A stretch of 62,833 nt of DNA from Basidioascus undulatus (Eukaryota). Of the stretch, positions 6,265-61,999 are shown one piece after another. A program made the translations under genes and the position numbers. The notes below the pieces were generated by a model. It made no database searches. It was not told the origin of the DNA and worked only from the letters and a program-made list of their open reading frames with translations. How positions within the stretch are numbered: position 1 is the first letter of the stretch; every line of letters begins with the position of its first letter. The DNA lies in the NCBI GenBank assembly GCA_000826855.1, contig JTLS01000004.1:1-62833 (forward strand), written 5' to 3'.

Positions 6265-7179
6265 ATGTTCGGCTCTGCCCTCCCCTTGCTCTTGATCTCG
6301 GTCCTCCTCGCGGCTGTCAACGCCCAGAAGACAATCCCCATCACCGTCCCCTCTGCGCCTGCGCCGGCTGCGCCGTCCTTGCTCGGGCGCCACTAGTGGT
6401 CGACCGGGCCTGGCGCCAGGTCCTGTACCTCCGCGGATTTGAGGTGGCATTCAACGTCCAGTAAGGATGGATACTCCTACCGAGGGACAGCGGGACTACT
6501 CGCTTTCCGCTGATATCTGCATCTCTTTGTTCACAGGTCCCAGCCCTTCCAGAAGGCTAGCACGTACCGCCTCTCTTTCTCGTACGAGATTGGGGGCATC
6601 GAGCTCGCTCATCAGCAGTGCCCGCCCAAGGAGATCACCATCGTGCCAGGCTCGGGTACGGGGGATGTGAGCCTCTCCGCCAAGTGCGTCTAGCAATCTT
6701 CGTTGCAGCGCGAGGGTCCCGCTGACAGATTTGAGCAACCAATGGCAGGTCCGCATCCGTTGAAGGATATTACAGCAAGCCTTGGCATAGGCACGCTCGT
6801 CTGCTCGGATGAAAAGTGCATTCGCCTCGGGGTCCCATTCCTTGCTGTTCTCCTCAACAGCAAGCATTGGTCTCCTCGTTTCCAGCGTCTCTGTCGATAC
6901 CGCTTCTGCGCTTAAGTCTTGGGGCTGGAATTTCCACCTATAACGAGCGGCCTCGATCAGACTCTGCCTCCCTCCTCGGCTCCTCCTCCCTCCGACTGTC
7001 ATCCCGCCACCCCCGAGCTACACGCCACTCGCTCGGGCAGGAACGACGCTTACCTCGCTCTGGCATCGGTAGCGGGGTGGTACGAAGGCTTCGCTGTGGC
7101 TTGTTCGTTCTTCGTGGCATTGGGGGCGTTGGTGAAGTTAGGGGTGCTGGGACTTCTGAGGCGCGCGCTGCGAGCGTAA
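6265..7179 (+). pseudogene. Degenerate secreted or membrane-anchored protein gene
   Basis: A signal-peptide-like start (MFGSALPLLLISVLLAAVNA-QK) reaches an early TAG. Cys-containing fragments continue in other frames, and there is a hydrophobic C-terminal segment (FAVACSFFVALGALVKLGVLGLLRR) ending at 7179. Confidence 0.3.
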
Positions 7180-27700: not shown

Positions 27701-29947
27701 GAGACGGGCAAGACCGAAAACCGGTTCAACCTGCTGCAGCTCGAGCAGCAGCTGCAGTTCAAGCCGGGCGAGGAGTGGATCGTACGTCCAGGGAATAGTG
27801 TTTTGTTTGGAGCGTGGACGCTGAAGGATGGGTTGGGGTGGGTGGACGAGCAGAACCTTCGACTGCAGGACGAGCAGCGCGAGCTCGTGTTCAAGGGCTC
27901 GCTCAAGAAGAGGGGCGGACCGCAGAGCGAGAGCGCCGAGCTTCAGGTGTTCTTGTTCGATCATGCGCTGCTCATGGTCAAGGCTAAGATGGTCAACAAG
28001 CACGAGCAATACAAGGTCTACCGCAAGGTACGCTTTCTGACTGTCCCTGTGCAGCGGATGCTAACGCTGGATTTGGCAGCCCATCCCGCTCGAGCTCCTC
28101 ACTGTCAGCTCTTCCGACGATGCCTTCTCCAAACGACCGAAGTCGCTCATGTCGCGCACTTCGACGGGCGGCAAGACGTCCGCGTCGTCGACCGCGAACG
28201 GCTCGGGCGGTGGGTCGTCGACGTCGGACGCGCGCGACGCGCCGCCCAAGCCTGAGAGCAAGCTTGGCTACTCGCTCACGTTCCACCACCTCGGCCGGCG
28301 CGGGTACTCGATCACACTTTGGGCGAGCACGTTCGTCAGCCGCCGCAAGTGGCTTGAGAACATCGAGAAGCGCCAGCAGATACTAAGGGACAAGTGCACC
28401 GTGTTCGACACCGAGGTCCTCAGCGACGCGTTCTTTGTCGGGCTGGATCGCGCCAACTGCGCGGTGCCGTTCGGTGCGTCGTTCTTGATCTGGCGTAGTA
28501 TCTGGCATTGTGGCTGACGGGAGCGATTGGCAGATCATGGCCGCCGCATCGTCTACGGCACGGACAATGGCGTCTACCTCTCGGACATGCGCGAGATCGG
28601 CCGACCACCGCAGAAGGTCATCGCCATGCCGGGCGTCACGCAGATCGAGGTCCTGGAGGAGTACTTAATCCTTATTGTGCTTGCAGGTGCGTCTTCCTTC
28701 GCCTCACGTCTTGACTGCCATCGCCTGAAACTGTTCTGACATGTTACTGCGGCCGACAGAGCGCTCGGTCTGGACGTTCTCGCTCGACACGCTGGACCCG
28801 TCGGACCCGGCGGGCGCGATCCGCAACGGGCGCAAGATCTCTTCGCATACGTCGTTCTTCAAGGCGGGCACATGCCTGGGCCGCACACTCGTCTGCGTCG
28901 TCAAGGCCAGCTCACTGTCGAGCACGATCAAGACGCTCGAGCCCATCGACCAGAACGCGCGCGGGAAGAAGCAGCCGGCGTTCCGGAAGCTGCTCCAGGG
29001 CGGAAAGGAATCGTTGCGGGTCTTCAAGGTGCGTATGCTACGTCTTTGAATTCAGCTGTATCGGCCACTGACCCATTTTGCACGCACTTCGCTATGTGCC
29101 TCCAGGAGTTCTACATCCCCACCGAGTCGAGCTCGATCCACTTCCTCAAGTCCAAGCTCTGCGTCGGCTGCACCAAGGGCTTCGAGATCGTCGACCTCGA
29201 GACGCTCGACACCCAGGGCTTGCTCGACCCTGCAGATCCCAACCTCGAGTTCGTCTCGAAGCGCGAGAACGTCAAGCCGATGGCGATCTACCGCGTCGAA
29301 GGCGATTTCCTGCTCTGCTACGACGGTGCGCAGCCGTTCACTTAGCAAGCGACCGAGTCTGGGAGAGATGCTCAAGTGCCATGGCTGTCTTTCACAGACT
29401 TCGCGTTCTACGTCAACAAGAACGGCTGGCGAGCACGCACGAACTGGATTGTTTACTGGGAAGGTCAACCCACAGGTTTCGGTGAGTAGTTGACTTCTTC
29501 CCTCTGTGCAACATTAGACCAACAGCCGACGGTACTGACTCTGCGGCAGCTCTGCACTACCCCTACGTGCTCGCTTTCGAGTCCAACTTCGTCGAGGTGC
29601 GGCACGTCGACGACGGCGAGCTCGTGCAGGTCATCCCGGGGAACGGCATCTCGCTCCTCTTCGCCGACACGCCTCCCTCCGCCTCCAACGCGCCAGCTCA
29701 CCCCGCCCACGCACACCACTATTACGGCGCTCCACTCCATCCTGTAGGCGCACCGGGCTACCCGCCGTACCACTACCCAGGTTACGGTCCGCCGGCGCCG
29801 CGCGGATACCAGCACCACGCGCTCCCACCGCCGCCGCCGCCGATGCAGCAGCGGCACTACCCCCCTCCGCGAAATCAGACAATCCTCGCGGACGAGGGGC
29901 GGGTGCTCGCGCTCAAGCCCCGACCACCGTCCGCAGCGCTGCGATAG
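24793..29947 (+). CDS. ROM2: Rho1 guanine nucleotide exchange factor (ROM1/ROM2/Rgf1 type: DEP-DH-PH-CNH)
   Basis: VYPALLSRVAEAF, KDGLTY..AFDGREAVD..TTDRNLALLLGRALDAQKFFHDV (DEP); GVFTLLTDCYSPTC..LCYSIACPRRLEQ; ELKRQEAINEV and ESRKLELNGYLTKPTTRLARYPLLLE (DH); FLFDHALL (PH); EFYIPTESSSIHFLKSKLCVGC (CNH). Stop TAG at 29945-29947. Confidence 0.97.
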
Positions 29948-30878: not shown

Positions 30879-31822
30879 ATGCGCTTCTTCACCACCACGG
30901 CCATCGCTGCCTGCACGCTCGTTTCCTCCGCACTCGCTGCGCCCATCGACCTCGAACGCATCAGCAACAAGATCGTCAACCCTGTGACGTTCCACAAAAC
31001 TGTATGAATTGTATACAGATGGGTATTGCTATGGGAGGCTCATTCGATTTCACCTCCACACAGGACATCAATAACGTCGCGCTGCAAATCGTGGGCGATA
31101 AGACGGTGGAGCTTGGCTTGACCAGCACGAGCGCTGGCGGCAAGCTGGAGGTGAATGGGGTCTTTGGGGAGCTGTTCTGGAAGGATGATTGGAGGTGGAA
31201 CTTCCTCGAGGTGGACTCTCCCTTCATGTGAGTCGTGGAGAGGCACAAGGGAAGGCTTTCCCAGGACGACGCTGACCAATGCGTATGATACAGGGGCTAT
31301 TCTCAGTCGAACGAGACCAAGTACGGTGAGTGAAATGTTGTCTGCCTTGATGATAGGTTTGAATGCTGACTTCAAGTTTACCCATTCCAGGTCACCTCGA
31401 ACTGGCTTCGGACGAGCAGATGCACCTCGCAATTGCCGCTGCTCCTGGATCCGCCATCGGCCAAGGTCTCGTCCTGGAAGAGGCCGCCGTTCGCGACGAC
31501 TCTACTCAGCTTTGTCTGTGTCGAATGCGTTATGACCTGCTCTTACGACTGACCGCCTCATCTTGCAGTCCAAACCTTCAAGCTTGATGTCGCTTCCGGC
31601 CGCGTCGAGTTCCTCGGCGTGCCCGCCCAGGCGTTCCCCAACTACCAGGGTCCCTACGGTACGCAACCAGCAGTATGTGTCTATGGTCTCAGGCACTGAA
31701 GGTCTTTCATAGGCCCCGATTCCCAGCGAAATCTCCTCGACAAGCTCGTCGGCCAGGAGGTCAAGCTGTCCAGCGCGAAGGACGACGGCGTTGGATACTT
31801 CAAGCTCGCTGAGTCCAACTGA
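30879..31822 (+). CDS. Secreted beta-rich protein of unknown function, paralog A
   Basis: Six exons splice to an open frame: signal peptide MRFFTTTAIAACTLVSSALAAP, ...WNFLEVDSPFM-GYSQSNETKY-GHLEL...IGQGLVLEEAAVRDDSTQLF-QTFKLDVASGRVEFLG...GPY-GP...LAESN*. Confidence 0.8.
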
Positions 31823-32502: not shown

Positions 32503-33533
32503 ATGCTGCCTTCCCTCTTCTCCGCGGCTCTCGCACTCGCAGCGCCGCTTTTTACCTTCGCCGCGCCCGTGAACGTCACCAACGGCCGGGCACCGAGCAT
32601 CCTGATCGTCAACATGGTTTCGTTCGAAGACACGGTCCGTCGATCCTCGTAGTGCATCCTTGCCAGGATAGGGGAACTGAGGGATGTTGGACACGCTTGC
32701 GCAGGTCGCGTCGAACGTCCCGCTCCAGATTGACGGCAAGTCGCTCAGCCTGAGCAGCCAGGAGGAGGGCGGTGTCCTGGAGTTCTCCGACAGCTCGGAC
32801 GTCACGTTTAGCTTCCTCGAGGCCAACTCGAGCTTCATTGGCTACGACTCGACTGACTCGTGCGTATCTGCTGCTTATTGGTGGCTACCGTGGGACTAAT
32901 TGAGAGGGAACGTTGCATTTCCAGTGTCAAATATGGTATGTTTGCTGCAGAGGGACTCAGGAAGGAGGGAAGGAAGGGTAGGAGGGGTAACGAAGTGCTC
33001 CCGGGGCTGACGCAGGCACACTATGCAGGCCACATCTCCCTCCCCTCGTCCAACAGCACCCTCCACCTTTCCGGTAAGCCCCAATCCCAGACGTCTTCGG
33101 AGTCAGGACTCTCATGCCTAAACATGTACAGTGACCACCGCTCCGACTAACCCCGTCGGCCAGACCCTCGTGCTCGCCAACGCAGCCATCTCGGATGACT
33201 CGTCCCAATACTGTACATTCAATCTCTGCTGGCGTGAGCTTGGAATATATCGTTTACCGAACGGACCTCTCTTCTTAGTCCAAACCTTCAAGCTCGACAC
33301 CGCTGCCGGGACAGTCGAGTTCGTCGGCAACAGCAAGGTGTTCCCTACCGAGAACTGGAGCGGTCCCTTCGGTGTGTCTCTTCGCTCATCAAATCCTGAG
33401 ATGACAAAGCACACCTGCAGTTCACGATACTAACCTCTGAGTTTCCGCAGGGCCTGGCGAGAACTCGTCCGGCGACGTGACTCTGGCCGCGCAGAGCGAG
33501 AAGAAGTTCACCTTCGCGCTGTCGTCGCAGTGA
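32503..33533 (+). CDS. Secreted beta-rich protein of unknown function, paralog B
   Basis: Seven exons, including an 11-nt microexon near 32925, give: signal peptide MLPSLFSAALALAAPLFTFAAP, ...FSFLEANSSFIGYDSTDS-VKY-GHISL...VGQTLVLANAAISDDSSQYF-QTFKLDTAAGTVEFVG...GPF-GP...ALSSQ*. Confidence 0.8.
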
Positions 33534-40712: not shown

Positions 40713-41909
40713 TCTGCGACGCCAAGCGGATGCATGTGCACTGAATGCCTCTTGCTTGACTTCATCTGGCTGCTTTCGTTGTTTAGATTGATACCAATGC
40801 CGAGAAACAAGTTGCTGTTCAAACACACACATCCACAAACAGATTGCGATTTCAAATAAAAGCGCCCTCTGCGCACGCGCGAAGTCGTAGCAAGCTCGAG
40901 GCCCAGCGCGAGGGCTCGGGCCCCGAGTTCCAACCATTCACAGGCGGATAGGAGCTGGCAACGGTGTAGCGCGCGAGTGGTCAATGGCGACCATCAACTT
41001 TTTGCTCCAAGTACTGATGCATTTCTTTCCTTTATTTTACACAGCTGTGGACCAGAAAGGCAACAAAAAATACCTAGTGCTTGAAAAAGGGGTGCCAAAT
41101 GAGAGGTCGTTCATGCATGAGACCTTGCAGCTTCACTCAGCAGCCTCGTGAGTATTCTACAAAGCCGCTGCTTTTAGGACGGTCAGCGTGAACAAAAACC
41201 CGCACTTTACAAAGTTCCAGGATGGGTGCTCATTGTCAACTCCCGCTCGACCGTTGCGCTGAAGCCACGAGTTGATATGCCGCAGCATGGAGGCACGGGT
41301 ACGCCGTGTGCGCCGCTTCCCGACTCACTCGTGTCAGAGGTTGGTAAGAGCATCCCAACACTTCCGGAATCCCTTCAGTTATATCCCGGATAAGGCGTGA
41401 AGCACGACACAAGTCATTTGGCAGCACGGCCGCTGCCTGACTGAGCGTGCATGGCCTCACTTGCCCAGCTCTAACTAAAGGTGAATCTATGATATGTTGT
41501 ATCTTCGTTGACCTTCGAGCACTTTGTGGAAAGACTAACTGCCATCTCCGAGTGATTCTGCTTTTCCTTGCCTCTGCGGTCCTTTCTGGCACCCTCGGTC
41601 GGCACGCACCCTCCGCGGTTCCTCTCAAACACGACGAACTGTGAATAGAACCTCCCGGACTTTCTTCAATGGAACCATTTCTACCAAGACTTTGCGCGCC
41701 TCCAAGCCGGGTGCGCGCCCCTGGGTCATTTTCGACAAGTGATAAGCCTCGTCAGCTTGATGACGTTCGAGCCGGCTCGATCTCGACGTCCAAATCCAGG
41801 TCGCCTTCCTGCTCTTCTCCCCTTTCTCTCGACCCCCATCTTCCTCAACTCCTCGGGACTTCTCAGTGGCACTCTAGACTCATTTGCTCCTATCGCTCGC
41901 TTCGAATTT

Positions 41910-43448
41910 ATGCCGGCCACTCGCTCCGCGTCCGCCTCGCTCAAGCGGCCCCTCTCCTCGAGTTCGCTCTCCAGCGTCCCCTCAACGCCTCCCCAGAAAC
42001 CCAAGCGAGTCCGCACCCCCAAAACCGCCTCTATAACTCCCACTCCCGACGGCGTATCGCCGTTTAAGCCGACTCCACAGCAGCTGAAGAAGGCGACCCT
42101 GCTCAGCTCGCACGGCACCTCGCGCTTCGCGTCCTTCGCCAGCCCGACGCACGAAGAGTGCGAGGCTATCGCGGACGCGCTGGCGGCGTGTAACGGAGGG
42201 ATGCCGGTGAGGCCTGAAAAGCTGGAGAACAACCCGGAGAGGGCGGGGTGCGGTGCGGTCACTAGCGGTGAGTCGCTTGCGCTTCTTCTGCTGGGTGCGT
42301 CGGGGAAGCTGACAGTGTGATTGCTGGATGGCAGTGTTGGATGCTGTTGTGCGGACTGTGCTTTCTTGCAACACCTCAGGTGCGTCCACTAAGTTGCACT
42401 CCTAGAATCTTTCCCCAGAACTTGCGTTACACTCGACACCGACGCTCTTATCCTCATTGCACTTCATCAGACCGCAACTCCTCGGCCGCCAAGAGATCTC
42501 TCGACCTTGCCTTTTCGCGCCAGCCTACCGAGCACGGCCCTCTCTCCGACTCCGCCTTCTACGCGCGCGTCGCAGCCGCCCCCGCGTCCGACATCGCCGA
42601 GGCGATCAAGTGCGGTGGGCTGGCGAAGAACAAGTCCGTGACGATCAAGAGCGTGCTCGAGCTGTGCGTGTCGTCGCCCGAGGGCCGCGGGAAGCACAGC
42701 TTGGAATGGTTGCGGGAGAAGAGCGACAAGGCGGTGATGGAGGTGCTGCTGGGCGTTAAGGGTGTGGGCCCGAAGGTCGTGTGCGTGATGTTTGCCTGTT
42801 CTTCCTTCGATCGTCGGCTGGCTGACAGACCGTTGACCTTCTTTAATCGAATAGCGCATGTGTACTCCTCTTCGCCATGGGCCGAGACTCTTTCGCTCTC
42901 GATACGGTTCGTTACCTTATCCACATTATCCTTTCGCACCCCTTGCCTGCGTCCTTGCCGCTGACCTGCTTTCTCTTATTCTACTGCCCTTTCTCATCTT
43001 GTAGCACATTTACCGCCTCGGTGCGCAGCTCGCATGGTTCCCTCTCAGCGCGTCACGCGAGGACGCCCAAGCGCATCTGGACGTTCGGATCCCCGACCAC
43101 CTCAAGTGCGTTTCACCTTCCCCTTCCTCCTTTTCCTTCCATCTTCGCGCTCTCCCGCCATCGATAGACGTATACTCACGAGGTCATCCGTCTTTGATCA
43201 GATACCCGCTCCACATTCTCCTCATCCGTCACGGCAAGACCTGCGCGGCGTGTCAAGCCAAGGGGTCGAAGGACAAGAGCGCCCGGGAGGGGTGTCCGCT
43301 GCTCCCGTTCAAAGGAGGGCGGTGGAAGGGCGCAGGGGTGAAAGCGGAGGGGAGTACGGAGCAGACGAAGAGCGCTGAGGTGAAAAAGGTGGAGGAGGTG
43401 CTGGAGGAGATGAAGACGGAGGTGAAGGCTGAGGGCCTGGACGCTTGA
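41910..43448 (+). CDS. HhH-GPD superfamily DNA glycosylase (endonuclease III-like fungal family)
   Basis: SPTHEEC..., VLDAVVRTVLSCNTS-DRNS, IAEAIKCGGLAKNKS, SLEWL, LLGVKGVGPKV.ACVLLF (HhH), FALDTHIYRL (catalytic Asp) and YPLHILLIRHGKTCAAC. Confidence 0.92.
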
Positions 43449-46384: not shown

Positions 46385-47785
46385 CTAGCACATAAACCGC
46401 AAGATCTGCCTCGTACGACTGTTCGAGAATGCGCCGCATCTCCCGCCCTCTTTCCACACCATGAACGCTTCGAGCTCAGTCGTCCCGAACCTGTGACGTG
46501 CGTATGAGGGTAGGTCAGGCATACAGAATAAGGAGTCCAATTGCTCCACCGCTTACTTGATGAGGACCTCGAAGCCAGCAGAGACGTAGTATCAACGCTT
46601 CTCTGCGTTCCACGGTTGCTCCGCCTTCTTGGCAACCTAGTCGAGATTGCCCTGCACTGTACAGGCTGGGATAAATCCCTTGGATTTTGCCTCAAAGGTG
46701 TGGGCATAGTAAGTGTGTACGGCGCTGCACAAGATTCAGAATTGGATCAGAAAGGAACTGACCCAGGGATCTTCAGAGTACCGCTCTCGATACCGAGCTC
46801 GGCGTTGGAGGTGAAGCGGGGCGCCAGATGTCGTCCCCTTCCGAAGCGAACTGCCGCTTCTTCATCTCGAAATCGCGGTGGAGTGAGTCCATCTTGCCTG
46901 GCTTGGAGTACTCGCTTCCCGCAAGCTTGCCTACCCATTCATTCCCGCTAGATGAGTGGTCCGACGATGTTCTGCCAATGCACGAAGGAGTGACTTGCCC
47001 ATGAGATACTTTTCGGCTTTCTGGTTGACGACGACCGGCTCCCATCAGGCGGCCTTCTCAACACTCTTTCAGTTGACAGGGAATCTCGATTCTAGGCATG
47101 GAATGCTCACAGTCCGGTTGCGAAGCCTCGCGTACACGCGAAGGGTTGACTTTGTCGCAACATAAGCTAGAGAAAGGAACTGTCAACTCGTGGCCTGCAG
47201 TAGAAGCATAAGTTGTGCGAACCAGATGTGTCAAACGTTCCGCCCCGAGCGTCGCAGACGATGAGGATATCTCCGCTGTGTTGGGGCAGTAAATCTGTGA
47301 GCTTTGTATGTCGCCGGAACAAGCTGAGGATTGGTCTCTCACCTTGATTGAGCAACTACAGATAACTGTGTTCCTTCAATACATCTTTGGGGCGGCGGGG
47401 TAGTACATCTCAACCAAGGAGAGCTGCGGATCCGACGGCTGAACGAGCATGAAGACCACGGCTACGCTCGTTCTCACCCACCCCAATGGCTGGGAAGGAC
47501 GCGAACAAGCTCGTTCTGTCAAAGCAGGCATCGTCTCAGAGAATATTGCGAGCGAGCAGGTTTGTTTTGTTACGGAGGGCGAGGCTGCCTTGAATTGCTG
47601 TTTGGACGCCAAGGTTCTCGCTTCGATGTGTCAGAGTGAGATACACACAAGTAAACATGAAGATGGCGGACAGCTAGCGCCAGTTGAGAGTTGAGTGACC
47701 AAGGGAGGCGCAACTCACTACACCTGACGCTCTTTTTGGAACGGTTTCGACGCAAAGGAAACATCGTTGTGATGGCGTCCTTCAG
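46385..47785 (-). pseudogene. Atypical Hsp70 (HSPA12-like actin-fold ATPase) copy 1; deleted, with stops and an internally inverted exon
   Basis: The minus strand carries GDILIVCDARGGTFD, GKLAGSEY...DFEMKKRQF, LGIESGTLKIPG and FGTTELEAFMVWKEG. The plus strand at about 47354-47626 carries LVLTHPNGWEGREQ...FVTEGEAA, with stops TAG 47401 and TGA 47440. Nucleotide similarity to the 57140-59790 copy is visible by eye. Confidence 0.8.
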
Positions 47786-47992
47786 ATCGTTGAGCTGGAA
47801 TGAGTTGAGTGACCCTTGCAGCGGAATATTTCACGAGGCGGATGCTTTGCGGCGAGCCTTAGCTGATTCACCTTAGCTGATTCGTTTCATCGTATACTAG
47901 GTAATTGGAAAGATCCGTACCACTTTTTCAGGACAAATTGAAAGACACTCGCGGACGGCGCTTAAGCTTCCGCCTTCCTCATTCCCACCAAG

Positions 47993-49508
47993 ATGCCCGT
48001 CACTGGGTGGCAGCTCGAAGAAGAGGAGGGGTGAGAACGTTTCCAAATAACATTCTAGTATCCCGGTATTCTCATAATTTGTATTTCAGACGACCGGATG
48101 CCGTCAAGTCCATGGAGAGCTGCAGCCTACCTGAGAACCGTGATGAATCTTCAGTATCCAGGTCTACCCTGCGCACAGGGCTTTCGCATTTATTTAGCCC
48201 GTTTGCTTCCTCAACGGAACATGGATCCCCCTCAAACAGAAACCACCCACTGGACGAGGAGCTAGGAAACAACAGGCAAGTCTTTTGGAGCAAACGGGTG
48301 TCCCGCTGGCCTCACACTCTTGAGCGTGCACAACCCAGATCAACTGCTCCTCACTTCTACAGGATTTCCAAAAATCCATGCGAAGCGAAGGTCTACCCAC
48401 AGTCCCAGATCGAGGGCCTGCAGCTCCGCCTTAGAACGCAGGCGCAGGTCCATGAGAGGGAGGCCCAGACTGCAAGCAGCACCATCGCGAACATGCGCGC
48501 CCGGATCGACCAACTTCTACGAGAAAACGAATATCTCAAGCATCAATGCTCGGCCAAGGAGAGGGACAATCTAGGACTCAGGCACGAGCTGAGCACCGTG
48601 TCGTGGCTCGTGCCACCGCCGGACAGCGTCGCACTCGCCGATGTGACGGCGCAGCTGGAAAGCATCAACGTCGGGATCGATCAACTCACAAGCAACATCG
48701 CGGAGGCCATGCGCATACATGCGCCTCAGTACAAGGGAGCAACGCAGGTCTTTGATCCGTCCGGTCTTATGGACGAGGTCGTCGCGTCGGCCCCGCAGCT
48801 CTTCCAGCATCTCTGCAGCGAGCATCGGGATACCCAGTCTCGTGGCTTCGAAGTGCAGCTCGTTCTTCATCATGCTCTCACACAGATACTGTACCACCGA
48901 ATTTTCCAACCCTTCGCCTTCTGGCTTCACTGGCGCGGGGATCCCCTATTCGGTCCCATGCATGCCAGCATCGCAGGCCGTCGTATGTACAATCACTCTA
49001 CAGACTGAATATGGAACTCACGGCTGCTCAATCAGTGTGCAACCAAATCCAAGTCTCTACATGGCGGTGCACGACCTATGAGGCAGCGAAGGCTCTGTTT
49101 CCTCGGTCTCCTGCCCTCGATCAAGTCCTCAGCATCGCACTGCGGCACCTCTGCGTCCTTGCAGCAGCCGTATACCAGATGGACCTGAACACGTTCCGCT
49201 CCGAATTTGAGGCTGCCATTTCTCCCAAGACCAAGATCCTCATTTCCTCCGCGTCGGCACTGCTGCACACGACTCGCCGCGACGTCCGCGCTTCGGACCT
49301 CGTCATTACCGCGCCAAAAGGCGGTGTCCCATTCAACAAGGCGACCATGAGAAGCGATGAGGATACCGGAGGAGAAGGCGAGGAAGTCGTTAGTACATGG
49401 AGTCTAGGACTGCAGAGCCAGAGTGCCGAGGGGCGGGACGCCGTCGTAATCAAGCGGGCGACGATTTGCACGGAGGCGATATGGGCGGTGCTGAGGGCGA
49501 AGAACTGA
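47993..49508 (+). CDS. Coiled-coil protein with a putative GrpE/Mieap-like C-terminal domain
   Basis: Exons 47993-48030, 48090 to about 48984, and about 49035-49508 splice in frame without stops. Heptad region (IEGLQLRLR...MRARIDQLLRENEYLK), DSVALADVTAQLESINVGIDQL, QIQVSTWR, and C-terminus GVPFNKATM...VVSTWSLGL...VVIKRATI. The fold assignment is inference. Confidence 0.75.
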
Positions 49509-49836
49509 GGCGTTATGACTACTGCCATCTGTTCCGGACATTGTATCTACACATTTTATTGCTGTATAAAGATCGGTGTGCCTTCATGCGAAACTGCCTC
49601 TTCAATCGGGGATGTGCCAGCGCCATCGTTTAGGGTGTCGAGACTGCCGCTCTAGACATGTCCTGGACAATTGCTCAATATTTTATGTTCCGGTAACGAA
49701 AACCAGAAGAGATTCGACATAGGCTGCATCTACTGGTCCACGTCGCCCTTCCTAGCCGTCCCGGCCGCAAAACATTCCCCGATTGCACACGGGCATGCGC
49801 AATGAAACCACTTTTCGTCACGCACTCTCTCTCTCC

Positions 49837-52800
49837 TCAGAACAAATCCGACGCCCTCGCCCTCCCCGCCTTCCCTCTCCCCATCGCCGCCTGCGCGGCC
49901 TGCGTCACCGCCGGGGCGGGCATGTCCACCGGCTCCTTCTCGACCCACTCCATCTCCTCCTCGTCCTGCACCACCGTCTCCTTCTTTTCCTTCCGTTTCT
50001 TCGTCCTCGGCACATCCACCATCTCCTCCCCCTCCCCCCCCTCCATGTCGAACGTCAGCATTCCCGCCGCGCGCTTGCGCTCCTTCTTCTTCGCCTTCTT
50101 CTCTTTGTCCTTGTCCTTGGCGGTCGTGCGCTTAGCGGAAGGGACGAAGACGGGGCGGAAGTTCTCACCGTCGGCGGGGGAGGGGGCGGAGGCGGTCATG
50201 GGTGTGGGCGTGGGACCGGAGGTGGGTGCGGGTGCGGACGCAGCGACAAGAGCCGGCGGAGCGTCCTGGTCCATCTCGTCATCGTCGTCCTCGTCCTCAT
50301 CCTCGTCATCCGAATTGGCAAAGATCGCCTTGAAGATGTCCATCGCGGGGCGCTCGTAGCTGAGTGTCTCGCGGCCCTGCGCGTCGTCCTCGCCGAGCCC
50401 GACTTCCGCCGGCTGGGGCGGCTGAGGCTCAGCCGGCACAGGCGGGAGCGGGGGCGGCGGTGCCGGGAGCGCGGGCAGGCCGGCATCCGCCCACCGATCC
50501 TGCTTCGGCGCAGCCCGCGCGCCCTCTCCTCCGGTCCGCCCGCCGAATTGGAACCCTGGCCCCTCATCCGCGGGCGGCCCCTCCGGATGCGGGTCGGGGA
50601 CGTTGAAGCGCTTGCAGAGCAGCCGGCTCGGGAACCAATCCTTCGTCTCGCGTGTGAGCGGGCCGAAGCGCCCGTCGCGCACCGCCCGCTGGCGGGGCGT
50701 CTCGTTCGCGAGGCGCTCGGCCTCCCGCTCCGCGCGCTCCTCCTCCCGCGTCTTCTTGGGCGGCGGCGGGAGCGCGACGACACCCGCGCGGAGACCGGGC
50801 TGCATTGTGGGGAGCTCGGGGCCGGAGGACGACGCCGAAGTGAAGCGGTTCGCGATCGCTCCGGACATGGGGCGGAACATCGCGGCGGACTTGGAGAACG
50901 CGTTCAGCTCGTCTTGGTGCGCTTGGGCGGTCAGCCCGGGGGCGGGCGTCGTCGGCGCGGGGTAGGTGTCGGGCGAGGCTTGCGAATGGAGGTATGTGAG
51001 GTACCGGTTCTGCTTGAGCGGGTCGTCTGAGAAGGGGAGGAAGCCGTGCAGGGCGGCGTTCGCCGTGACGCGGTCCAGCGGGGGGACGGTGATGGTGACG
51101 GGCTGTGAGGCGGCGGCGGGGGGTGGGCCGCCTGCACCGGCGGACTTGAACGCTTGGAGGCGCTCTTTGTCCTTAGAAGATATGTAGTCGAAGACGGAAC
51201 GCGGGGGGGTCTTAATCTGCTCGGCGCCCAGGATCGCGCCGCGCTGCACAGGGACGATGTCGTTTCAGCTTTGATGGTATCACATCTTCAAGGAATATTG
51301 GAATATAGCAAAACACACCTCCTCAAACGATAGCTGCTTGGGTCGGCCGTCCTGCCCCGCCGGCGCAGGTGTGGGTGCAGGCCGGTTCTCCTTCGCTGCC
51401 GCCGCCGCCGCGGCCTTCTTCCACACGCGCGTGGGGTCCGGCTCCCAGCCTTTGGGTACGGAGGGCGGATCGAACCTGTCGCGAAGTTAGAGTGCAAGAT
51501 GAGCGACCTGATCCAAGGGTCGAAGTCCAGATGGACACGACGAGATACACTCACCATTGGTCCTTCGGCGGTGCGACGGATTCGAGCTGGAATCCGGTCA
51601 AGACAGGCCGGCCGTCGTGGAAGAGCTCCACTTCCCCAGGGAGCTGATCAAGGGGTTCTCATCAGCCGTGTGCACCCAAAGCAGAGTGAGAACCTCCGAC
51701 ACACCTTCGTCTTTCCCCGCTCCGCGCCTCTCCCCAAAGCTGGCTGACGCCCGCCGCCCATCAAGATGACCTCCCCATCCGCATCCTTGTCGGCCTCATG
51801 GTCGTACGCCCAGCCGTCGCGCCCCGTCGCGCGCGAGGAGGGGATCGACGACGAGTAGATGTCCATGTCGTCCTCGTCCGCCTCCTCCAGCGCGCCTATG
51901 CCGAAGCCTGTCCTCCGCCATACTCAAAATCAGCACACATTACTTAGCATCAGAGACCATAAACGCACCTCCCGCCATGCCGGCACCGGCGCCCTCGCCC
52001 TTCCTCCCTCCTCGACCGACCGCCTCGCCCAGCGTAGCGCTAGGCACGAACCCAAGCCCGCGCGTGCCGACCTGCTTCCCGAACTCGACGAGCCGTACAT
52101 CGCGCGGCGCGAACGTGTGCTTCTTGTCGGCCGGCGCGCCAGACTGCAGTTCCTCGATCGGCTGGCCCGTCTGCTCGGCGAGGCGCGCGGCAGAGATGCG
52201 CGGGCCGATACCTTGCCCCTCGCGCCAGCCCATGCGCTTCAGGAGCTTGACGCCGACAGAGGTTCGCGCGGGGGCGACGAGGTCAGCGAGGGTGGAGGAA
52301 AGCGATCTGGACGCCATACGTTAGCCCCGCTTTCTTGAACACCATCCTGCGGATCCCAAGCACTCACCCGTCCCCTGCTCCCGGTCCTCCTCGCCGCTTT
52401 ACCTCTGCCGCCGTCCCGCCGAGCAGGTCGAACTCCTCCCTCGTCTCCAAGCGCCGGCTATCCCTCAGCGCCTCGAGGTCCTCCTCGTCCATGAAGTCCT
52501 CCGGCCGCGCCTGCTGCGCCTTCTTGCCCTTCTCCGCACGCGACGAGGTCCACGTCGACGGCGTCCACCCCTCGGCGGACCCGACAGAGTTGAAGTAGCC
52601 TGCGCTGAACCCGCCTGTGAAGGCGCCGTGGAAGCGGCGGCGGCCTTGCTCGTCTCGAACCTGTGCGAGGGGTCAGCCGGAGGTCAGCCGGATGCGGGTA
52701 GATACCGCCACGCTGGAGGAAGGACGGACTTCTTGCTCCCACATCGGCTTGAACTGTGCATATTCCTCATTCAATTGGAGACCATGAGTATGTGGAAGGT

Positions 52801-53268: not shown

Positions 53269-54650
53269 ATGACTCCCATTTTTCCTGACGAGGTCTGGTC
53301 ACGCATTTTGAGCTTTCTATAGGCAGCTCATGGAACAGTGGCACCGGTGGTGAAAAGAGAGCTCTGACGGCGATCGCGCTCGTCTGCCGCCAGTGGAATG
53401 TGAGTTGCCATCGCCAGAGCGTCTGAAGTGCTCCAACTGCGATTTTCTATTGTGTTGGTGCCCTGGTCCTTTCTGAACCTCATCGTTATTGCTGCGTCAT
53501 GCTCATGGGGTCGGACTCGATCGCTGCCTTTGCCCGCCTCCTCATTCGTCTTGACGTGGACTCGGTCGACGCTCGTTCCAGAACCCTCGCGAACTCGAGG
53601 CCTCTGCCTATACTGATGACTACGACCTTTTCGCATACCCATTCGATCAGAGCCCCATCCCCCACATCCTCTCGTTTGCGAAGCAACTCACGTATGCCTA
53701 TGGGCACGGCCGGGCCTTCGCTGCTTCACGCGCTGTCTACCAATCGCCACACCCTTACCAGGCTGGTAATTTTCATAGGCATCCGTGCGAGAGAATCTAT
53801 CAATGTATTGCGCTCCTTCATGGGGCTCCGATCGCCTTGCTGCGGCGTTTACGGAGCACGAAAGCGACTTTTCCGTCACTGGCAACCGTCGAGGCGTTCA
53901 ATCTACACACTTGCGCCCAATCGAGCTTGCATCTCGCTCTCCCTGCAGCACGGTGGCTCTCAGTTACTGCTCTTCTTTGCGCGCTGCGACTTTTCAGCGC
54001 TGAAGCGTCTTGACAGAGTCCCAACCGGGACATGCCCGTTCAATGCTCTGCAATCATTTTTCGCGCGTCACGGTCCTCGGCTGCGCCGCATCGAAGAGTT
54101 CCAACTCGATCATGATCGCTTCTTACCGCCTATCATGTCGCACTGTACAGCTCTTATGTCAGTCACGCTTCACATTCACAACACGGTTTGATGTAGCTCT
54201 TGTTCAAGCCCTTCCGCCATCACTCAGAGGATATGACGCTCATCATGGAACAACAAGATGCAATCAACGCAAGCTCGGGACTCTCACCCCGTATCAAGAC
54301 ATGCTTTTCCTCGCTTGGAGTTCATCTCTGTAAGGATCTGGAGCCCAGAAGAGCCTAAATCCTGGGCCGAGCTCAAGGCCATCGCCGCGCGACTGTCTCT
54401 CCAAGGCATACGTTTCAAGTACCGCTGAATTGACAAGGGCGGCCCCGCATATGTGAAATAGGCTTGCATGGACACTGTCGTCAATACCTGCTATGTGAGC
54501 TTTCGAGCATCTTGTGTCGCGGTGGCTCGTCTGTGTACAGAGGGGCAGAGTCTGATGTGCTTCGCAAGATTGTGGGACCCATTGCACCGAAGTGCTTGTG
54601 CGGACTATGCGTCGGCGGATTTCAGAGTCCTGGGCACAGCGCAGGACTGA
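53269..54650 (+). pseudogene. F-box-like / RNI-like protein, disrupted
   Basis: MTPIFPDEVWSRILSFL* (TAG 53320-53322), then a frameshifted ALTAIALVCRQWN, then LRR-like segments (LTRLVIF, FFARHGPRLRRI, IMSHCTALMSVTL). Divergent from GPATCH1. Confidence 0.6.
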
Positions 54651-57139
54651 CTAGGACGGGTAGCGGGTCCGCACGGCAGCATCGTTTGTCGACCTTTCAA
54701 TCCTCCACATAAGCTGCGGTCGGTACTGACTCAAAGATACACACGTCTCTTGGGACCTTTGTTATAATCCCTACTGGCAGGCCCAGTTGCTAGCCCATGT
54801 TTGATCCTGTTCGTTCATGGGGGAAGCGCGGGTGAAACAAGACGCCAGGGCAGGATATCGCGACCAACGGGGCCATGCCCTCTAAGGCAGGCCTAGTTTC
54901 CTAGTGAGAAATCTGGATCTGAACATTTTCGTTGCTGGATGTCGCGATGCTCGCTGTTGGAAGCCAAAAACCACTGCACTGACGTCCTCGTCCAGATGTC
55001 GCATCGGACAAACGAAGTGGTGTTACATCTGAGCAGCACGATGTGCTAATTTCCCCAGCGATTCCTTGATACCAAACAGGATACCTTTTCTCAATCCTAA
55101 AGCCATAACAAGACCTTCGGGAGGCGGCACAGAGGACGGGCGTATGTGTCCTCAGTCTGAATACACAGAAACAAAGGCCGCGACAGATACAGTAAACCGA
55201 ACGTACTTGTCTTCATAGCAAATCCGGGTAGTTCCCTTCCCGCTCTGGAGCCAGACCGTCAAGAGGAAGGTGGACGCCGTAGATTGCTCATAGACGCTAC
55301 GTTATGATTCACAGCACGACCAGTTTGCTCCTGTTTATGAATTCTAACGCACTAGACGTTGAAGCCGAACTCTTCAATGGTCACTCTTGAAGTGACCGTG
55401 ATCTCCTTGGGAGGACACTGGTCAAAGGCGAGCTCAGTACCATTAAATCTCGTACAACATCGAGAAGCGGTACTTGAAGGGCGTCTCAAGTGGCTCGGAC
55501 TTGTGGGGAGAGAGGTGGGGATCATCAGCTGGAGATCGCGCGCACTGGACCGCTGAAGGATGGCGCTGACCGAATGTGAACAAGGACTTCCGCCCCGCTA
55601 AGCTCCATACTGTAGCTAAGGGACAGCTCTATAGGGTCCCATGCGAGCGTAGGAGACACTCGCGCTGGCGGTCTCGAGCCCGTTGGAGACGGCGAGGAGC
55701 GATAAGCAAACCGCGAGGAAAGTAAGTATGCGGGTAAGGGCCAGCATATTCTTTGGGATCGCAGGAGTGGGGGGAAGGGTGTGATAGTATGGGCTCTAGG
55801 CAGCTTCCTAATATAGAGATATAGTGGGAGAGAGAAGAGTGAGTGGTCGTGATCCGGCAGAAGGGCGAAGAGCTGAGCGGAAACAGAAACCCACCCGGCA
55901 CGCGAAGGCGGCGTTTCTCAAGAATGCCAGTGCTTCACTGCCATTTCACTGGCAGGAGCGACATTTTTTCGATCAAACTCAGGAAGGTAGAATTACAGGT
56001 TGTACACTACCCCACGGAGGAGTTGGGCAGAATGCATGCCGCAACTTCTGCAGAATATCGTCACTGGCGGAGAGAGTGGGTGGGCTGTCCAGTCTAGCGG
56101 TCTAACCCTTACATCCTAGAAAACTTTCATAACTCATTGATCCAACAAGCTCCAGAACAGGATACCCTGGATGTCTTGCCACCGAGTATAGACAGAGCGG
56201 CGGGCGAGGGAAAGCAGTTGTGCGACCCTGAACCCGGAAGGAGCCGCCCATCCTCTCCCTCGATTGAGTTGAAATGCGCAAAAGAAGAAGCTGCGGACGA
56301 CGCAATATCTCCGTCTCCGAGCTGCTACACGACTCCGCTCAGTACCGCGACTCCACCCTTGGCCACGATCCACAACGACGACCTCGCCTTTTCTTCCTTT
56401 GAAGAGCGCGAGCACCATCTCCTTCACGTACACCCACGAACTCAATCGTGTTGCCCACACTGTCTTACAAGATTTGGGTATGTATCGCTGCTCACGAGAA
56501 ACTGCAAACGGGACTAAGAAATTGACTTTGTTTGTCGGCATCACGTTTTGATGTTCTCTGCCATTACCCTTCTCACAGTTCCACATTGCCTCCTCCCTGG
56601 CGGACAAGATCTTACGTACATGATGCGTGACGCCATTCAAGCGCACCTCTTCACCAAGTTTGATCTCTACCGCGTACGTCGGCGCAGCTGGGCCCATTCT
56701 CATAAGGCCAGTGGTCTAACATGCCCTTGTTTTTCTCCAGCTGCACGAGCTCCACTCGGCCCTCAGCCCGCCCTCGCCCCGCACAAACCGTCTGTTGTCC
56801 TACATCCACAGCGTCCACTTCTGGGTTCTTCCGCTCATCAGCCCGGAGGCGGAAGACCCGCTGGAAGCGGACGCCCTTATGTCTCTTCCCAAACATAAGC
56901 TCAAGAGCAGAGAGCTCTGATGCATGCGTGGTTTTCCACCACCGTAAAGGCCGAGTGGGATAGGAAAGCGGGTAAAGCAATAGTGTCGTGTTTCCACCCT
57001 GGAACTACCAAGAACCTCAAAGGAGTAAGGGACGATGCGGCAAAGTAGTCATCGACTGAGCTGGAAAGGGTCCCGCAAAAGATCCTCCTGACAAGGTCGT
57101 TGCGTTTCGGACTCGTTTCACTCTTTCCAGCTCATCATC

Positions 57140-59790
57140 ATGAAAGACACACCGACAAACACGTTCTCGCTTTTCAAGCCGATCCAGAAAGAGCTTTCAG
57201 CCTAGTGAGTCTACTGTCTGAATGGATAGCTGCATCGGCGAAGTTGGCTAACATGCCGCTCAGTCAAGGAGAGGAGCGTTGCCTGGTTGTAGTTCCCGCC
57301 TTTCTTTCTTTGAGTCTATAGTCCTCGACTGATGCATCTCCCGAGAAGATCTGCATTGACGTCGGCACGACCTTCTCCGGCGTGTCCTAGACGATCCTCA
57401 TACTTGGGCAAGTGCCGAGAATTCGTCGTCTTGCAGTTCCCCGGGGCAACAGCACACCGCGGGGGACTGCAAGATCCCTTGCAAAGTCTACTATAGCAAG
57501 CGAGGCCGGGCAGAGGCCTTAGGGGCGGAGGCGGAGGATCCTGCAAAGATGGAGTCGGCTTTGAAGAACGGGTGGGGGCTCGCTGAGTGGTAAGTCGACT
57601 GTCTTACCATCTTTTAACGAGCTAGCGTAACATCGCCGTGTGAATTGGGGTATAGTTTCAAGCTGCACTTCAAGCCCTCCCACATTGAAAAACCAGAGCT
57701 TTCCAAGCTTCCACACGGGAAGACGGTCGACGAGATTGTACGTGTCTTTCCCGTTTTACTTTACACTTCGTCCACGTGGCTGAAAGATAAAGCATTCAGG
57801 TTGCCGACTACCTGCAATACGTTTACCGTGCGGCCGGGGAGTACATTTCCGCCAAGGAGAGCTGCGGAATAGACGGCTGGACAGCCGCGACGCTGGTGCT
57901 CACACACCCGAACGGTTAGGAAGGACGGGAACAAGCACGTCTGTGTCGTGCAGTCTTCAAAGCAGGTATCATGTCGGTGGCAGCGGGCGAGAGGGTCCGC
58001 TTTGTGACCGAGGGCGAAGCTGCTATGAACTTCTGTCTCGACACTAAGGTTCTGGATTCTAACTCAATCGAGGTGAGTTCGACTTCCTCATAGCAAACGG
58101 TGGTGACTCGAGAAAGCTGAAAATGAACTTACAGGAAGGAGACACTCTCATCGTCTGTAATGGCGGGGGCGGGACGATCGACACGTTAGGTCAGTTTTGA
58201 GCGACTTCCGGAGACGCTTCGCTTGCTGAAGGAGGGTGTTTTCCAGCGTACGTCGTTGAGAAACTCAGCCCTTTTCGTGTACTCGAGGCTACACAACCGG
58301 ATCGTGAGTGGCCATCCCGCGTGTTTAGAATGCTCAAACGTCCTGGAGAAGGTCGCCTCATGGGCGCAATTGTAGTCAATCAGAAGGCAGAAAAGTACCT
58401 CATGGGCAAGTCCGCTCGTTGCAGTCAGTGGTGGCTTAAATAGCTTAACTGACTTGGAAGTTCTTCGCGGGCCAGCTCGCTGAAAGCGAGTATGCCAGTC
58501 GCAGCAAGATGAATTGTACCCTGCGCGACTTCGAGATGAAGAAGCGCCCGTTCTCCTCGGAAGCGGACGACATCTACCTCAAGGTTTCGCCGCGCTTCAT
58601 CTCCGACGACAAGGTGGGCATCGAGGGCGGCACTTTGAAGATCCCTGGGTATTCTCTTGCTCACAACATGGCCAAATTTTCGCTCTGCATACAGCTGAAA
58701 TAATCTATTTGAATCCCCTGCAGTGCTCATGTTGCGATGTTCTTCACAACCTCGCTCATTGCCATCACGCAGTCCATGCTCGACATGATGAAAGAAACTG
58801 CCAATAAAGCAAAAGTGAGTGGATGTTTCACGCTCGAATTACTTCCGTAAGGTCTCCAAACTTACGGTAGGCGGCTTTGCAAACAACCCATATCTGCTAT
58901 CCGAACTGCAGAAGTGCCTGCAGCGGCGCGGCATCACCATCGTCCGACCTGGCTCGAACGCGTGAGCTGCTTGATTTCCAACCTCGAAAACCCTAGTGAA
59001 CTTACCACCCCAACCATGGCCTAATGGTGCAGGGCAAATGTCGCGGCCCAAGAGGGCGTGGGGTGGCGACTTGACAAATTGTGACAGTCCGAGTTGCCCG
59101 CCATCATTGCGGGCTTAAAGTATTTGAGGTTCATGATCCGGCATCTTCCAGCCGCGGCGATTTGCCGGTCACTACCCATCACATCATCGGGAAGAAGATT
59201 GTCCATGATCTGTACACCCCCGTCGTGATTGAGCTGCACGATGCCCAGAACTTGATGCTCCCATGACCTTCCCTGAGTACTGAAAACTGCGCATTATAGG
59301 GACAACGTGTACAAGACAGGGAGGAGTATAGCGCACCATTCCACGTCCTGTTAGGGAGCCTTCAGACTTGACGGACTTTACCATTACACTCTACACACAT
59401 CCAGGCGGTCCCCCTTCCTACAAGGGCCGAGTCCGTACGTTCTTGGGTTTGTTTATATGGAAAAGGGGTTCAAACTCTGCTCACTAGTCTCCTGTAGCTG
59501 CTACGGCGGGCTTCAGCAAGGGCTTCGCCGTGCGGGGCAATTAGAACAAGTCGGCAGGGTTGCGCCGCGGCAAAGGAATGCCGAGGAGCAGTGGGATTAT
59601 CGAGGCCAATTTTGATATCCTAATCAAGTGAGTACAAGGTTTCGGTTTGAGTCCAGAGGTGCAGCAGCAACGAACATTGAGCTGCATGTGTCTTAGGTTT
59701 GGCACGACCGAGCTTGAGGCGTTTGTTGTGTGGAGAACGGGCCTGACCTATCCTCGTATTTGCGCTGCCCGCCTGGCGGGAGTGTGAGCT
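57140..59790 (+). pseudogene. Atypical Hsp70 (HSPA12-like actin-fold ATPase) copy 2, nearly full length with premature stops
   Basis: ICIDVGTTFSGVS* (phosphate-1 motif; TAG 57388), FKLHFKP, LVLTHPNG*EGREQ (TAG 57917 replacing Trp), FVTEGEAA, IVCNGGGGTIDT (phosphate-2), DFEMKKRPF, VGGFANNPYL and FGTTELEAFVVW. Confidence 0.85.
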
Positions 59791-60084: not shown

Positions 60085-61999
60085 ATGCCTTGCCATGCCA
60101 GGGGCAAGCCGCACCCGCGGGCCACAACACCGCTTGCAGGTGGGCGGAGCGTCTTCCTTGACCTCCCGCCTCTTGTACTGATTCCCATAGTTCGCCTTCC
60201 ACCAGTCGCCATTCCCGGATTGCTCGGCCAACCCTTGCCACTGAGCTGCTCGTCAAGATCGTCGGCTACCTCGCCACCGACATCGAGAAAGAGCACTATG
60301 TGCACCGCTCCGACACTTCCCGATTCGAGCACAGCGCTCGCTCCGCGCTCCAAGCTCTACGCCTCACCTCGAAGGTGTTCAACGCCATCTCTCGGCGGCC
60401 TCTTTTGTACTATCTGAGCCTTCCAGCCGTGCACGAGGACGGTCTCCCACGGATCGAGGCGCTCGCCCATCCGAAGAGGTGGGCGATCCTGCGTCGCATC
60501 CGGTAGGCATTCCCACAGTCAGCACGGCGGGTTTGTTGATGCTGATGTTGCATGACAAGGCATATTCGGGTCATGTGTGGAAACCCGCTCGGAGCGGAGC
60601 TCAGGGCCGCTCTGAAGCACTTGATCAAAACGAATCTACAAGCGGCGGGGTTTATCTCCGCCTATTGTGCACGCACTCGCTCTGCACCACTTTAAGAACT
60701 TCCACAAACACTTCAGCTTGGCTCGCGCGCTGGGCATTTGCACCCACGATCTGTCGCGCTTTCGTGGTCGGCTCTATGACCTTGCTCTGGAGCTTTACCG
60801 CTGCCCGCTGCCCGAACCTCACGTCTTTATATCTATCTGCAGTACACGGTTACACTGCCAAAACTGGTCTAGACCCGATGAAGGATGTACGTCATTCTGC
60901 CCCCAATAAATGTCTTTCCTCTTCGCACTGACTTGGTGCTGTGCACAAGCTGCTCGACGTCCTAGTCAAGTATGCCCGCCGCGTCACAACCCTCGCGCTC
61001 GACTTTACCCCACTGCCATATGTGACCGACCTCTCTTCTGGACCAGTAAAGGTCGGGCTGGACCGTCTCTCTCGCCATCGAGTCCGACACCGCGGCGCAC
61101 GCCGAAAGCGCGGAGGCGCGCCGCCGGATCGCAGCGGCTCAGCGAGAGCTGGACGCGGCGGAGTCTGCACTGGAAGTGCTTGCGAAGCGGGTGGTGGAGT
61201 GGAAGAGGCGGAGGAGGGAATGAGCGCGCTGACGCTTTGGGTTGTGGAGACGCTCGTCCAGCTCGAACACCGTCTTGCGGCGGTGGGAGAAGAGGGGGAG
61301 GGGGTATCGACCGCGCCGCTGGTGCGAGTACCGGCTTGGGCGTCTGGATGGCACGGTCTCCGCTCGGAAGGTGGGGGATTGGGAGACGGAGGCACCGTCT
61401 GAGGACCCTGATTGCCCGCCGTGCCTTTGGTGGTAGCAAGTGGTAGTTAGTAGTGTGGCGCAACAGGGATGTAAGGCAGGCGTGTCTGTCTTCAGCACCG
61501 CCGGCACACTCTTTGCCTTCTTTTTTGTCCCTGGCCCTTTGAGTATGGCCCAGCTGTGGACGGGCTGTTCCTCAGAAGGGCTACCCGACTCACGCACGGC
61601 AGCAGCCAGTTGCAATGCTGCCCAATGCCGCGGGCTTTTTGCAATGGCGAGTGGACATTTTGGCACATGGTAGATAATCTATTATACTTCTTTCCCACCG
61701 CCGAAAAAGCATTTATTGAGCAAGAACAGACGTACGAAGAACATTCCGCGGGGGGGAGGGGGTCGTTAGAACACACGTACCCGACTCGACAGGATCGATC
61801 GCAAGGACGAAGAAATCCGTTCAGTCTGGGGGTATATCTTCCCCTTTCTGAACAACTACAGCATTTGAATACACAAAGGCTGGCGCGTGCATGTGGGAAG
61901 GAGGTACAGCGCGAGCTTTCAATTCGGCGGGAGACCGGGGAATGGCACCTCGTGATGCATGTTCACCAAGAGGTTATAGGTGCTGACTACCTTGCGTGA
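60085..61999 (+). pseudogene. F-box-like protein, probably frameshifted
   Basis: TLATELLVKIVGYLA...ALQALRLTSKVFNAISRRPLLYYL (F-box-like), then LLDVLVKYARRVTTLALDF. The first exon and downstream segments do not join in a single frame. Confidence 0.5.

Follow-up and report, generated by a model that had tools for sequence, protein, structure and literature searches.

A decaying head-to-head pair of a divergent Hsp70 gene and a coiled-coil gene with a predicted GrpE-like head in the fungus Basidioascus undulatus

GrpE, GrpEL1 and Mge1 (PF01025; PDB 1DKG, 4ANI and 9BLS), which work together with DnaK or mitochondrial Hsp70, are composed of a long helix and a helical part, with a small beta head at the C-terminus. 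GrpE has a length of about 200 amino acids, its gene is often located next to an Hsp70 gene in bacteria and, in eukaryotes, only organellar Hsp70s are known to be served by factors of the GrpE type. Here, a stretch of 62,833 nucleotides from Basidioascus undulatus (assembly GCA_000826855.1, contig JTLS01000004.1, positions 1 to 62,833, referred to as the window) was analyzed, in which a gene for a coiled-coil protein (CC) with a predicted GrpE-like C-terminal head starts head-to-head to a broken Hsp70 gene of a divergent type, which is recognized by the motif HPNGWEG. The window corresponds to contig C2325, intron-rich fungal DNA, in a 32-Mb assembly of 2992 contigs. Comparison of sequences indicates that the divergent Hsp70/CC pair is an old and conserved two-gene module of basidiomycete-type loci.

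In a review from 2026, GrpE is the established exchange factor of DnaK, and HspA12 is described as lacking the lid, as having an unknown function and as being expanded in bivalves (PMC13580251). According to two further reports, 89 of the 113 HSP70 genes of the oyster are HSPa12 (PMC11268181), and in bivalves an HSP70 orthogroup has 68.1 genes per species versus 4.4 and a Mieap orthogroup 53.1 versus 0.6 (PMC8382680). We infer that this HSP70 orthogroup, OG10, represents HSPA12. For Ascomycota, seven Hsp70 subfamilies were reported and HSPA12 is unmentioned in the accessible part of the source (PMC3879978); similarly, the covered portion of PMC10282164 does not mention GrpE, and in the available text of PMC10023807 the relevant terms occur in the reference list only.

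The CC gene is located on the plus strand at 47993-49508 and consists of three exons (47993-48030, 48090-48982 and 49036-49508) with two GT-AG introns (59 and 53 nt) between them; a donor located 3 nt earlier is also compatible with the sequence. The predicted protein of 467 amino acids starts with a low-complexity N-terminus, which is followed by a coiled-coil-like stretch (48412-48714, with weak generic coiled-coil Pfam matches that are all below the cut-offs), by a conserved helical core in exon 2 (48622-48969, residues 240-355 of the open reading frame in the hidden Markov model (HMM) alignment) and by a predicted beta head resembling the GrpE head (49296-49496, from the structural alignment of a model). 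An earlier note on this DNA had described the plus-strand gene as intact and had quoted the words GVPFNKATM...EVVSTWSLGL...VVIKRATI from its C-terminus; both statements are borne out, as the 467 codons contain no stop in a splice model made from the sequence only, and the words are present as quoted. The protein is a member of an unnamed fungal family. HMMs of this family, which were seeded on locus L022 of another fungus with the window protein left out, found the window gene among 3107 segments with E 1.1e-9 for the last exon and E 1e-4 for exon 2, compared to best values of E 2 and 0.8 in a control with reversed segments. Moreover, the intron preceding the last exon is at the same place in the window gene and its relatives. 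Word-indexed protein searches with CC exon 2, CC exon 3 or one Hsp70 exon gave no match, a two-sequence profile run with HMMER against 1.84 billion representatives gave only two matches to unrelated repeat proteins, and sequence searches of the PDB resulted in no significant match.

The pairing of CC and Hsp70 is found in other fungi as well. A motif scan of metagenomes returned at least 129 stretches, of which 79 loci with flanks were used and 49 stretches of at most 626 bases were excluded; the designation of these loci as mushroom-type was read from their sequences, and Basidiomycota are named for the near Atlas clusters. The 91 Hsp70 motif sites reduce to 74 distinct ones. Of the 23 Hsp70 sites having at least 5 kb of upstream DNA, twelve have a CC relative on the opposite strand at an upstream distance of at most 5 kb, and none of the 23 has one on the same strand; with shorter upstream spans a CC relative was present at 11 of 27 sites (3.5 kb) and at 10 of 36 sites (2.5 kb). 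All 53 distinct CC domain hits, which are not independent as they come from 23 loci of which about 18 are separate, are located upstream of and opposite to an Hsp70. Furthermore, all 31 exon-2 rows from 23 loci point away from the nearest Hsp70 start, the closest starts being only about 48 bp apart (L043). Several loci are arrays, such as L046:1-16026, a single contig with three repeated units of CC and Hsp70, and L033:816-16026 with five Hsp70 genes around a single CC gene, and two or three CC genes per Hsp70 occur in L022, L058, L099 and L078. In L022, L058 and L099 two CC genes point away from the Hsp70, the proximal one being long (574-603 amino acids in the exon 2 frame) and the distal one shorter, and in L078/L073 three or two CC genes are located upstream of the Hsp70. 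Over 13 pairs, the median identity is 51% for the Hsp70 exon and 26% for the CC last exon, and the distances of the pair partners correlate (Mantel rho 0.41, p 0.004). The earlier note had made conserved linkage in other loci or genomes one test of its proposal and had suggested that the pair may be lineage-specific; the head-to-head pairing is indeed conserved, at 12 of the 23 metagenome sites and at a second locus of this genome (C673, see below), and the pair is widespread across basidiomycete-type loci rather than specific to one lineage. A search of prokaryote genomes with one exon, i.e., a narrow single-exon query, gave 106 pattern matches of which none was confirmed. The Hsp70 genes at L041:7443-7900 and L043:7384-7950 are nearly identical and are distinguished by the exact loss of an intron and by a gap of a single base.

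The resemblance of the CC tail to GrpE comes from structure comparison. A fold model made from 19 aligned last exons (pLDDT 66.9, pTM 0.43) shows three helices followed by five short strands; a model from only two sequences was useless (pLDDT 39). Using Foldseek against 350,542 chains, E. coli GrpE was found first with E 0.076 and GrpE occupied seven of the first ten rows, and no chain passed E 0.001. In a structural search against 48,161 representatives, which was otherwise dominated by helix matches (best Z 5.4), human GrpEL1 was the sole match to residues 87-153 among the 50 matches listed, these residues aligning to GrpEL1 159-219 with Z 5.1 and an rmsd of 3.1 over 55 residues. A second structural comparison placed GrpE chains at ranks 1-5 (Z 4.3-5.4), the top match having Z 5.4 and an rmsd of 3.1 over 52 aligned residues. 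Taken over these alignments, the modeled CC head aligns to the GrpE head over 50-55 residues with an rmsd of 2.4-3.1. The modeled architecture of CC, in which a long helix and a helical part precede a beta head at the C-terminus, follows the GrpE layout, and like many bacterial grpE genes the CC gene adjoins a gene for an Hsp70 fold. Unlike GrpE, the CC protein has about 470 amino acids with a long and variable N-terminus, has no Pfam match and often occurs in two or three copies per Hsp70; in addition, its partner is a divergent Hsp70 in a head-to-head eukaryotic pair, and the true GrpE of this genome is encoded separately at C438, the only match in a PF01025 search of the genome. The claim of a GrpE-like head in the earlier note stands insofar as GrpE is the best structural match, the match staying below the significance thresholds (E 0.076, Z 5.1-5.4 and a sequence profile at E 0.17). 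The CC head looks like GrpE in the model, and the protein is not a member of PF01025.

Two further families combine a coiled coil with a compact C-terminal domain as CC does, i.e., animal MIEAP/SPATA18 (PF16026) and the plant GIL1/IRKI proteins with their C-terminal domain (PF24994). In contrast to them, CC has no HMM match: no Pfam family covers the CC last exon, and MIEAP and PF24994 were unmatched at E up to 1 for the window exons and the 19 last exons. In the Atlas language-model features of the CC last exon, GIL1/IRKI (0.85) and MIEAP (0.81) are the nearest named clusters, scores below 0.9 being leads only, and unnamed fungal clusters are much nearer (0.96).

The Hsp70 branch itself resembles HSPA12A/B in having a divergent Hsp70 fold with recognizable phosphate-loop and connecting motifs and in its tandem expansion; the window copy differs from HSPA12A/B in being a pseudogene. 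The HPNGWEG-type is provisionally labeled HSPA12-like, as in the earlier note; no search returned a named HSPA12 sequence. Judged by their phosphate loops and connecting motifs, the intact relatives have the Hsp70/actin-like ATPase fold. Their second phosphate loop aligns to a canonical Hsp70 of this genome (probability 85%, E 6e-6), the strand-helix preceding it aligns weakly (E 0.016 and E 0.32), and MreB_Mbl was matched with E 0.056. Pfam HSP70 (PF00012) gave no match on exon-sized pieces. The nearest Atlas clusters of the HPNGWEG-type are unnamed, and one of them carries PF00012 on 13% of its members.

At the window locus the Hsp70 is a rearranged pseudogene. The remnant first mini-exon lies on the minus strand at 47719-47764 with an ATG at 47764 and a donor at 47718, the paralog alignment ending near 47665. 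It is followed by the central exon carrying the HPNGWEG and FVTEGEA motifs at 47353-47640, which is inverted to the plus strand, has its left border near 47352 and contains in-frame stops at 47401 and 47440. The remaining exons are located on the minus strand at 46385-47352; they carry two more stops, a frameshift near 46825 and an internal deletion near 46750, where about 780-860 bp of three paralogs are deleted toward the Hsp70 3' end. For the N-terminal exons with the first phosphate loop, no match above shuffles was found on either strand of 47200-48100. The locus thus has no open, collinear Hsp70 frame but stops, a frameshift, two deletions and one inversion. Since the other window copy of Hsp70 and that at C2295 are collinear, it is the copy beside the CC gene that carries the inversion. 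Contigs of the sets X1 and X2 span 46453-50446 including the inverted exon without one base difference; as the window may derive from either set and the two may represent one strain, this agreement rules out a one-off misassembly and leaves room for a strain-specific rearrangement. A programmed or reversible inversion of the HPNGWEG exon was considered and rejected, given that the borders lack an inverted repeat (the best local match has 14 nt and 2 mismatches), that the exon contains stops, that neighboring exons are lost and that both DNA assemblies show a single orientation. Of the pair as originally described, the distance of about 200 bp between the starts remains (229 bp from the remnant ATG), and the single minus-strand Hsp70 gene does not, the HPNGWEG exon being on the plus strand; a working pair at this locus is not supported, as the Hsp70 is a pseudogene.

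The pseudogene region is transcribed in antisense. A spliced transcript on the plus strand at 46579-47000 with GT..AG introns at 46709-46776 and 46883-46951, which lie within the former 3' coding part of Hsp70, is based on one X3 contig of 285 nt (depth 4.85, no differences) in which one frame is open throughout the 95 codons seen. X3 was classed as DNA by guess, comes from the same sample as X1 and contains spliced contigs; its contigs do not cover the CC gene and are uninformative on CC expression. Another X3 contig at 46579-46690 (317 nt, 9 differences) may derive from a paralog that is transcribed, perhaps the one on C2401.

Seven remnants of the HPNGWEG-type Hsp70 were found in the genome, two in the window, two on C2401 and one each on C2295, C673 and C151, and all of them are broken by stops, frameshifts or large gaps. 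The second window copy is located on the plus strand at 57330-59750 and is collinear with in-frame stops, and no CC neighbor was detected. The motif HPNGWEG occurs at three genome sites (at most 1 mismatch), each in a broken copy, and protein and DNA searches of the genome yielded neither an additional locus nor an intact Hsp70 of this type. As the CC frame is intact and no intact HPNGWEG-type Hsp70 was found, CC has outlived its partner in this assembly. The genome also contains seven canonical Hsp70 loci, and 97 kb around canonical loci, a weak control, are without a CC match. A second decayed pair is present at G000:C673, where what is left of the CC last exon is arranged head-to-head to a broken Hsp70. 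This remnant is 46% identical over the aligned part; its identification rests on a search with the window exon (E 3e-11), the family HMMs having missed it. No CC relative was detected beside the remaining five Hsp70 remnants. A metagenome CC exon searched against this genome gave no match and missed even the window gene, so further distant CC copies may be overlooked. At C151 (L018:3500-4200, minus strand) inspection by eye revealed a cutinase-like serine hydrolase motif immediately upstream of the truncated Hsp70.

The region between the two starts (47765-47992) is proposed to be a shared promoter region. On the minus strand, the alignment of 47990-47665 with the regions upstream of three paralogs outscores each of 100 shuffles, with scores of 109, 119.5 and 94.5 versus shuffle maxima of 68, 61.5 and 62.5; the upstream region of C673 does not exceed shuffles in pairwise alignment, and a multiple alignment shows the first-exon donor there as well. 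The ancestral layout of the window pair was head-to-head. The region contains the word CCG-N8-CCG at 47839-47852, the spacing of which resembles that of zinc-cluster factor sites. The word is exact in two of four paralog upstream regions and has one change in one more, copies upstream of broken Hsp70s being located at 47839-47852, at 57073-57086 and in the C2401 and C2295 upstream regions. As a family-wide site it was rejected, because only one of 12 metagenome intergenic regions holds such a word, which is therefore local to this lineage. The tandem 13-mer to which the earlier note had drawn attention is located as described at 47857-47869 and 47871-47883 (47857-47883, a period-14 local duplication private to this copy). 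A regulatory role did not survive: the tandem exceeds the shuffled expectation (0 in 5 shuffles) but is one of three such duplications in the window, and the 13-mer occurs neither in five paralog stretches (2 mismatches allowed) nor in related loci totaling 466 kb (1 mismatch allowed), so that it was rejected as an ordinary local duplication.

Taken together, we give an even chance to the reading that an old and conserved module of an Hsp70 and a GrpE-headed coiled-coil protein is present at the window locus as a decaying copy, in which the shared region co-expresses both genes and CC binds the Hsp70 ATPase domain and controls nucleotide release. The GrpE-like tail together with the head-to-head linkage points to a private helper for this Hsp70 branch. 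In the proposed mechanism, the shared promoter would co-express Hsp70 and CC, and the CC protein would bind the ATPase domain as GrpE binds DnaK, its head wedging between the lobes and its long helix running along them. Binding of CC would set the nucleotide state of the HPNGWEG-type Hsp70, and the variable N-terminal coiled coil may give location or client choice. At the window locus the module has ceased to function in cis after deletion of N-terminal exons, inversion of one exon, a 3' deletion and stops in Hsp70. The surviving CC may serve an Hsp70 copy that is missing from the assembly, may have its own job or may be the last part to decay.

Several results weigh against this GrpE-type module. 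The fold scores are below the usual marks (E 0.076; Z below 8; pLDDT 66.9, pTM 0.43), the profile alignment to the GrpE of this genome lacks significance (probability 0.4%, E 0.17) even though the head register is as proposed in the earlier note, and no match to Pfam GrpE was obtained for the window exons or the 19 last exons. Complex predictions of three Hsp70 pieces with a CC last exon (L041/L043), which scored 0.00 twice with alignments unused and an uncertain partner fold, speak neither for nor against the module. Regarding linkage, the available upstream DNA is free of CC relatives at 8 of the 23 Hsp70 sites, and three further sites have CC only beyond 5 kb, as later members of arrays. 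The excess upstream (12 of 23) over downstream (2 of 11) is not significant (Fisher p 0.076), both downstream cases being the partner of the next unit in the L046 array, and the joint inheritance of CC and Hsp70 carries little weight because linkage alone yields it. Finally, CC has kept an open frame beside a dead partner, and all Hsp70 copies found in this genome are broken; this observation agrees least with the module and is not predicted for an obligatory partner.

A different output of the same gene pair is conceivable although rather unlikely, namely a surveillance or conflict switch, in which the fast-evolving CC would be a sensor, adaptor or held-back effector, the Hsp70-fold ATPase the switch and the GrpE-like head the docking part, with an output other than folding, comparable to pairs for non-self recognition. 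For the conflict role raised in the earlier note, turnover and divergence are the only arguments. The lower identity of the CC last exons compared to the Hsp70 exon (26% versus 51%), the multiple CC genes per Hsp70, the tandem Hsp70 arrays of L033 and L046 and the presence of seven broken remnants beside seven canonical Hsp70 loci would fit such a role, but relaxed selection would give equal divergence and loss. Moreover, no NLR, HET or other effector domain was found in 147 open reading frames of the window, where only long stop-free stretches were scanned, and the neighboring genes include ordinary ones (G-patch/DUF1604, RhoGEF).

The survival of CC can also be read, with lower probability, in the way that both genes are merely co-regulated neighbors, held together by a bidirectional promoter without physical partnership, CC having its own job and hence surviving the loss of Hsp70. 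About five small lesions in the approximately 265 remnant Hsp70 codons correspond to about nine expected in the 467 CC codons, and the Poisson probability of none is about 2 in 10,000 (hand calculation). As none was seen, either selection has preserved CC beyond the breakage of Hsp70, or the fragmented assembly lacks an intact Hsp70. The open frame beside a dead Hsp70, the failure to find an intact HPNGWEG-type Hsp70 and the conservation of the upstream region in paralogs fit independent neighbors. This explanation leaves open why GrpE should be the best match of a gene next to an Hsp70, and the 2992-contig assembly may miss an intact copy; furthermore, at C673 both genes decayed together. A reading in which this lineage is losing the entire family, with CC as the last piece unhit at a locus inactive today, is improbable: all seven Hsp70 remnants and the sole other CC copy found are broken and the region is transcribed on the antisense strand, but an untouched frame of 467 codons with intact splice sites is unlikely by the lesion count if CC had been decaying equally long.

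The surroundings of the pair contain on the plus strand a helix-hairpin-helix glycosylase-like gene (41649-43448, recognized by eye and without a Pfam match) and a DEP-RhoGEF-PH-CNH gene (25729-29944), and on the minus strand a G-patch/DUF1604 gene (49837-52766), a weak AA9 match (9606-10127) and a MYND finger (4566-4943). Two plus-strand genes flanking the second Hsp70 copy, at 53270-54400 and 60250-61400, start by eye with F-box-like words and have no Pfam match at E 0.001. The related stretches 6601-6638 and 55398-55435 (82%, inverted) as well as 31567-31618 and 33277-33328 (81%, direct) probably represent duplicated genes of unknown family.

As a more far-reaching and doubtful generalization, HSPA12-type Hsp70s across eukaryotes might have cytosolic partners with a GrpE fold, fungal CC, animal MIEAP/SPATA18 and plant GIL1/IRKI forming one superfamily of GrpE-headed regulators, by which stress or non-self would be sensed through an Hsp70 switch of fast turnover. 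In fungi the two genes are linked head-to-head, and in bivalves HSP70, in the oyster mostly HSPa12, and Mieap have expanded side by side (PMC8382680, PMC11268181). If true, SPATA18 would be a testable candidate cofactor for human HSPA12A/B. A published description of the Hsp70/CC pair was not found among the titles and beginnings of abstracts listed.

For the organism, the locus represents a natural knock-out, in which every Hsp70 of this type that was found is broken and one partner gene is open; it is unsuited to studying the mechanism of the pair. For the family, a cytosolic, multi-copy and fast-evolving GrpE-type factor would be unexpected. The head-to-head gene for a GrpE-like coiled-coil protein is a named candidate cofactor for the HspA12-like Hsp70s, the function of HspA12 being given as unknown in the recent review (PMC13580251).

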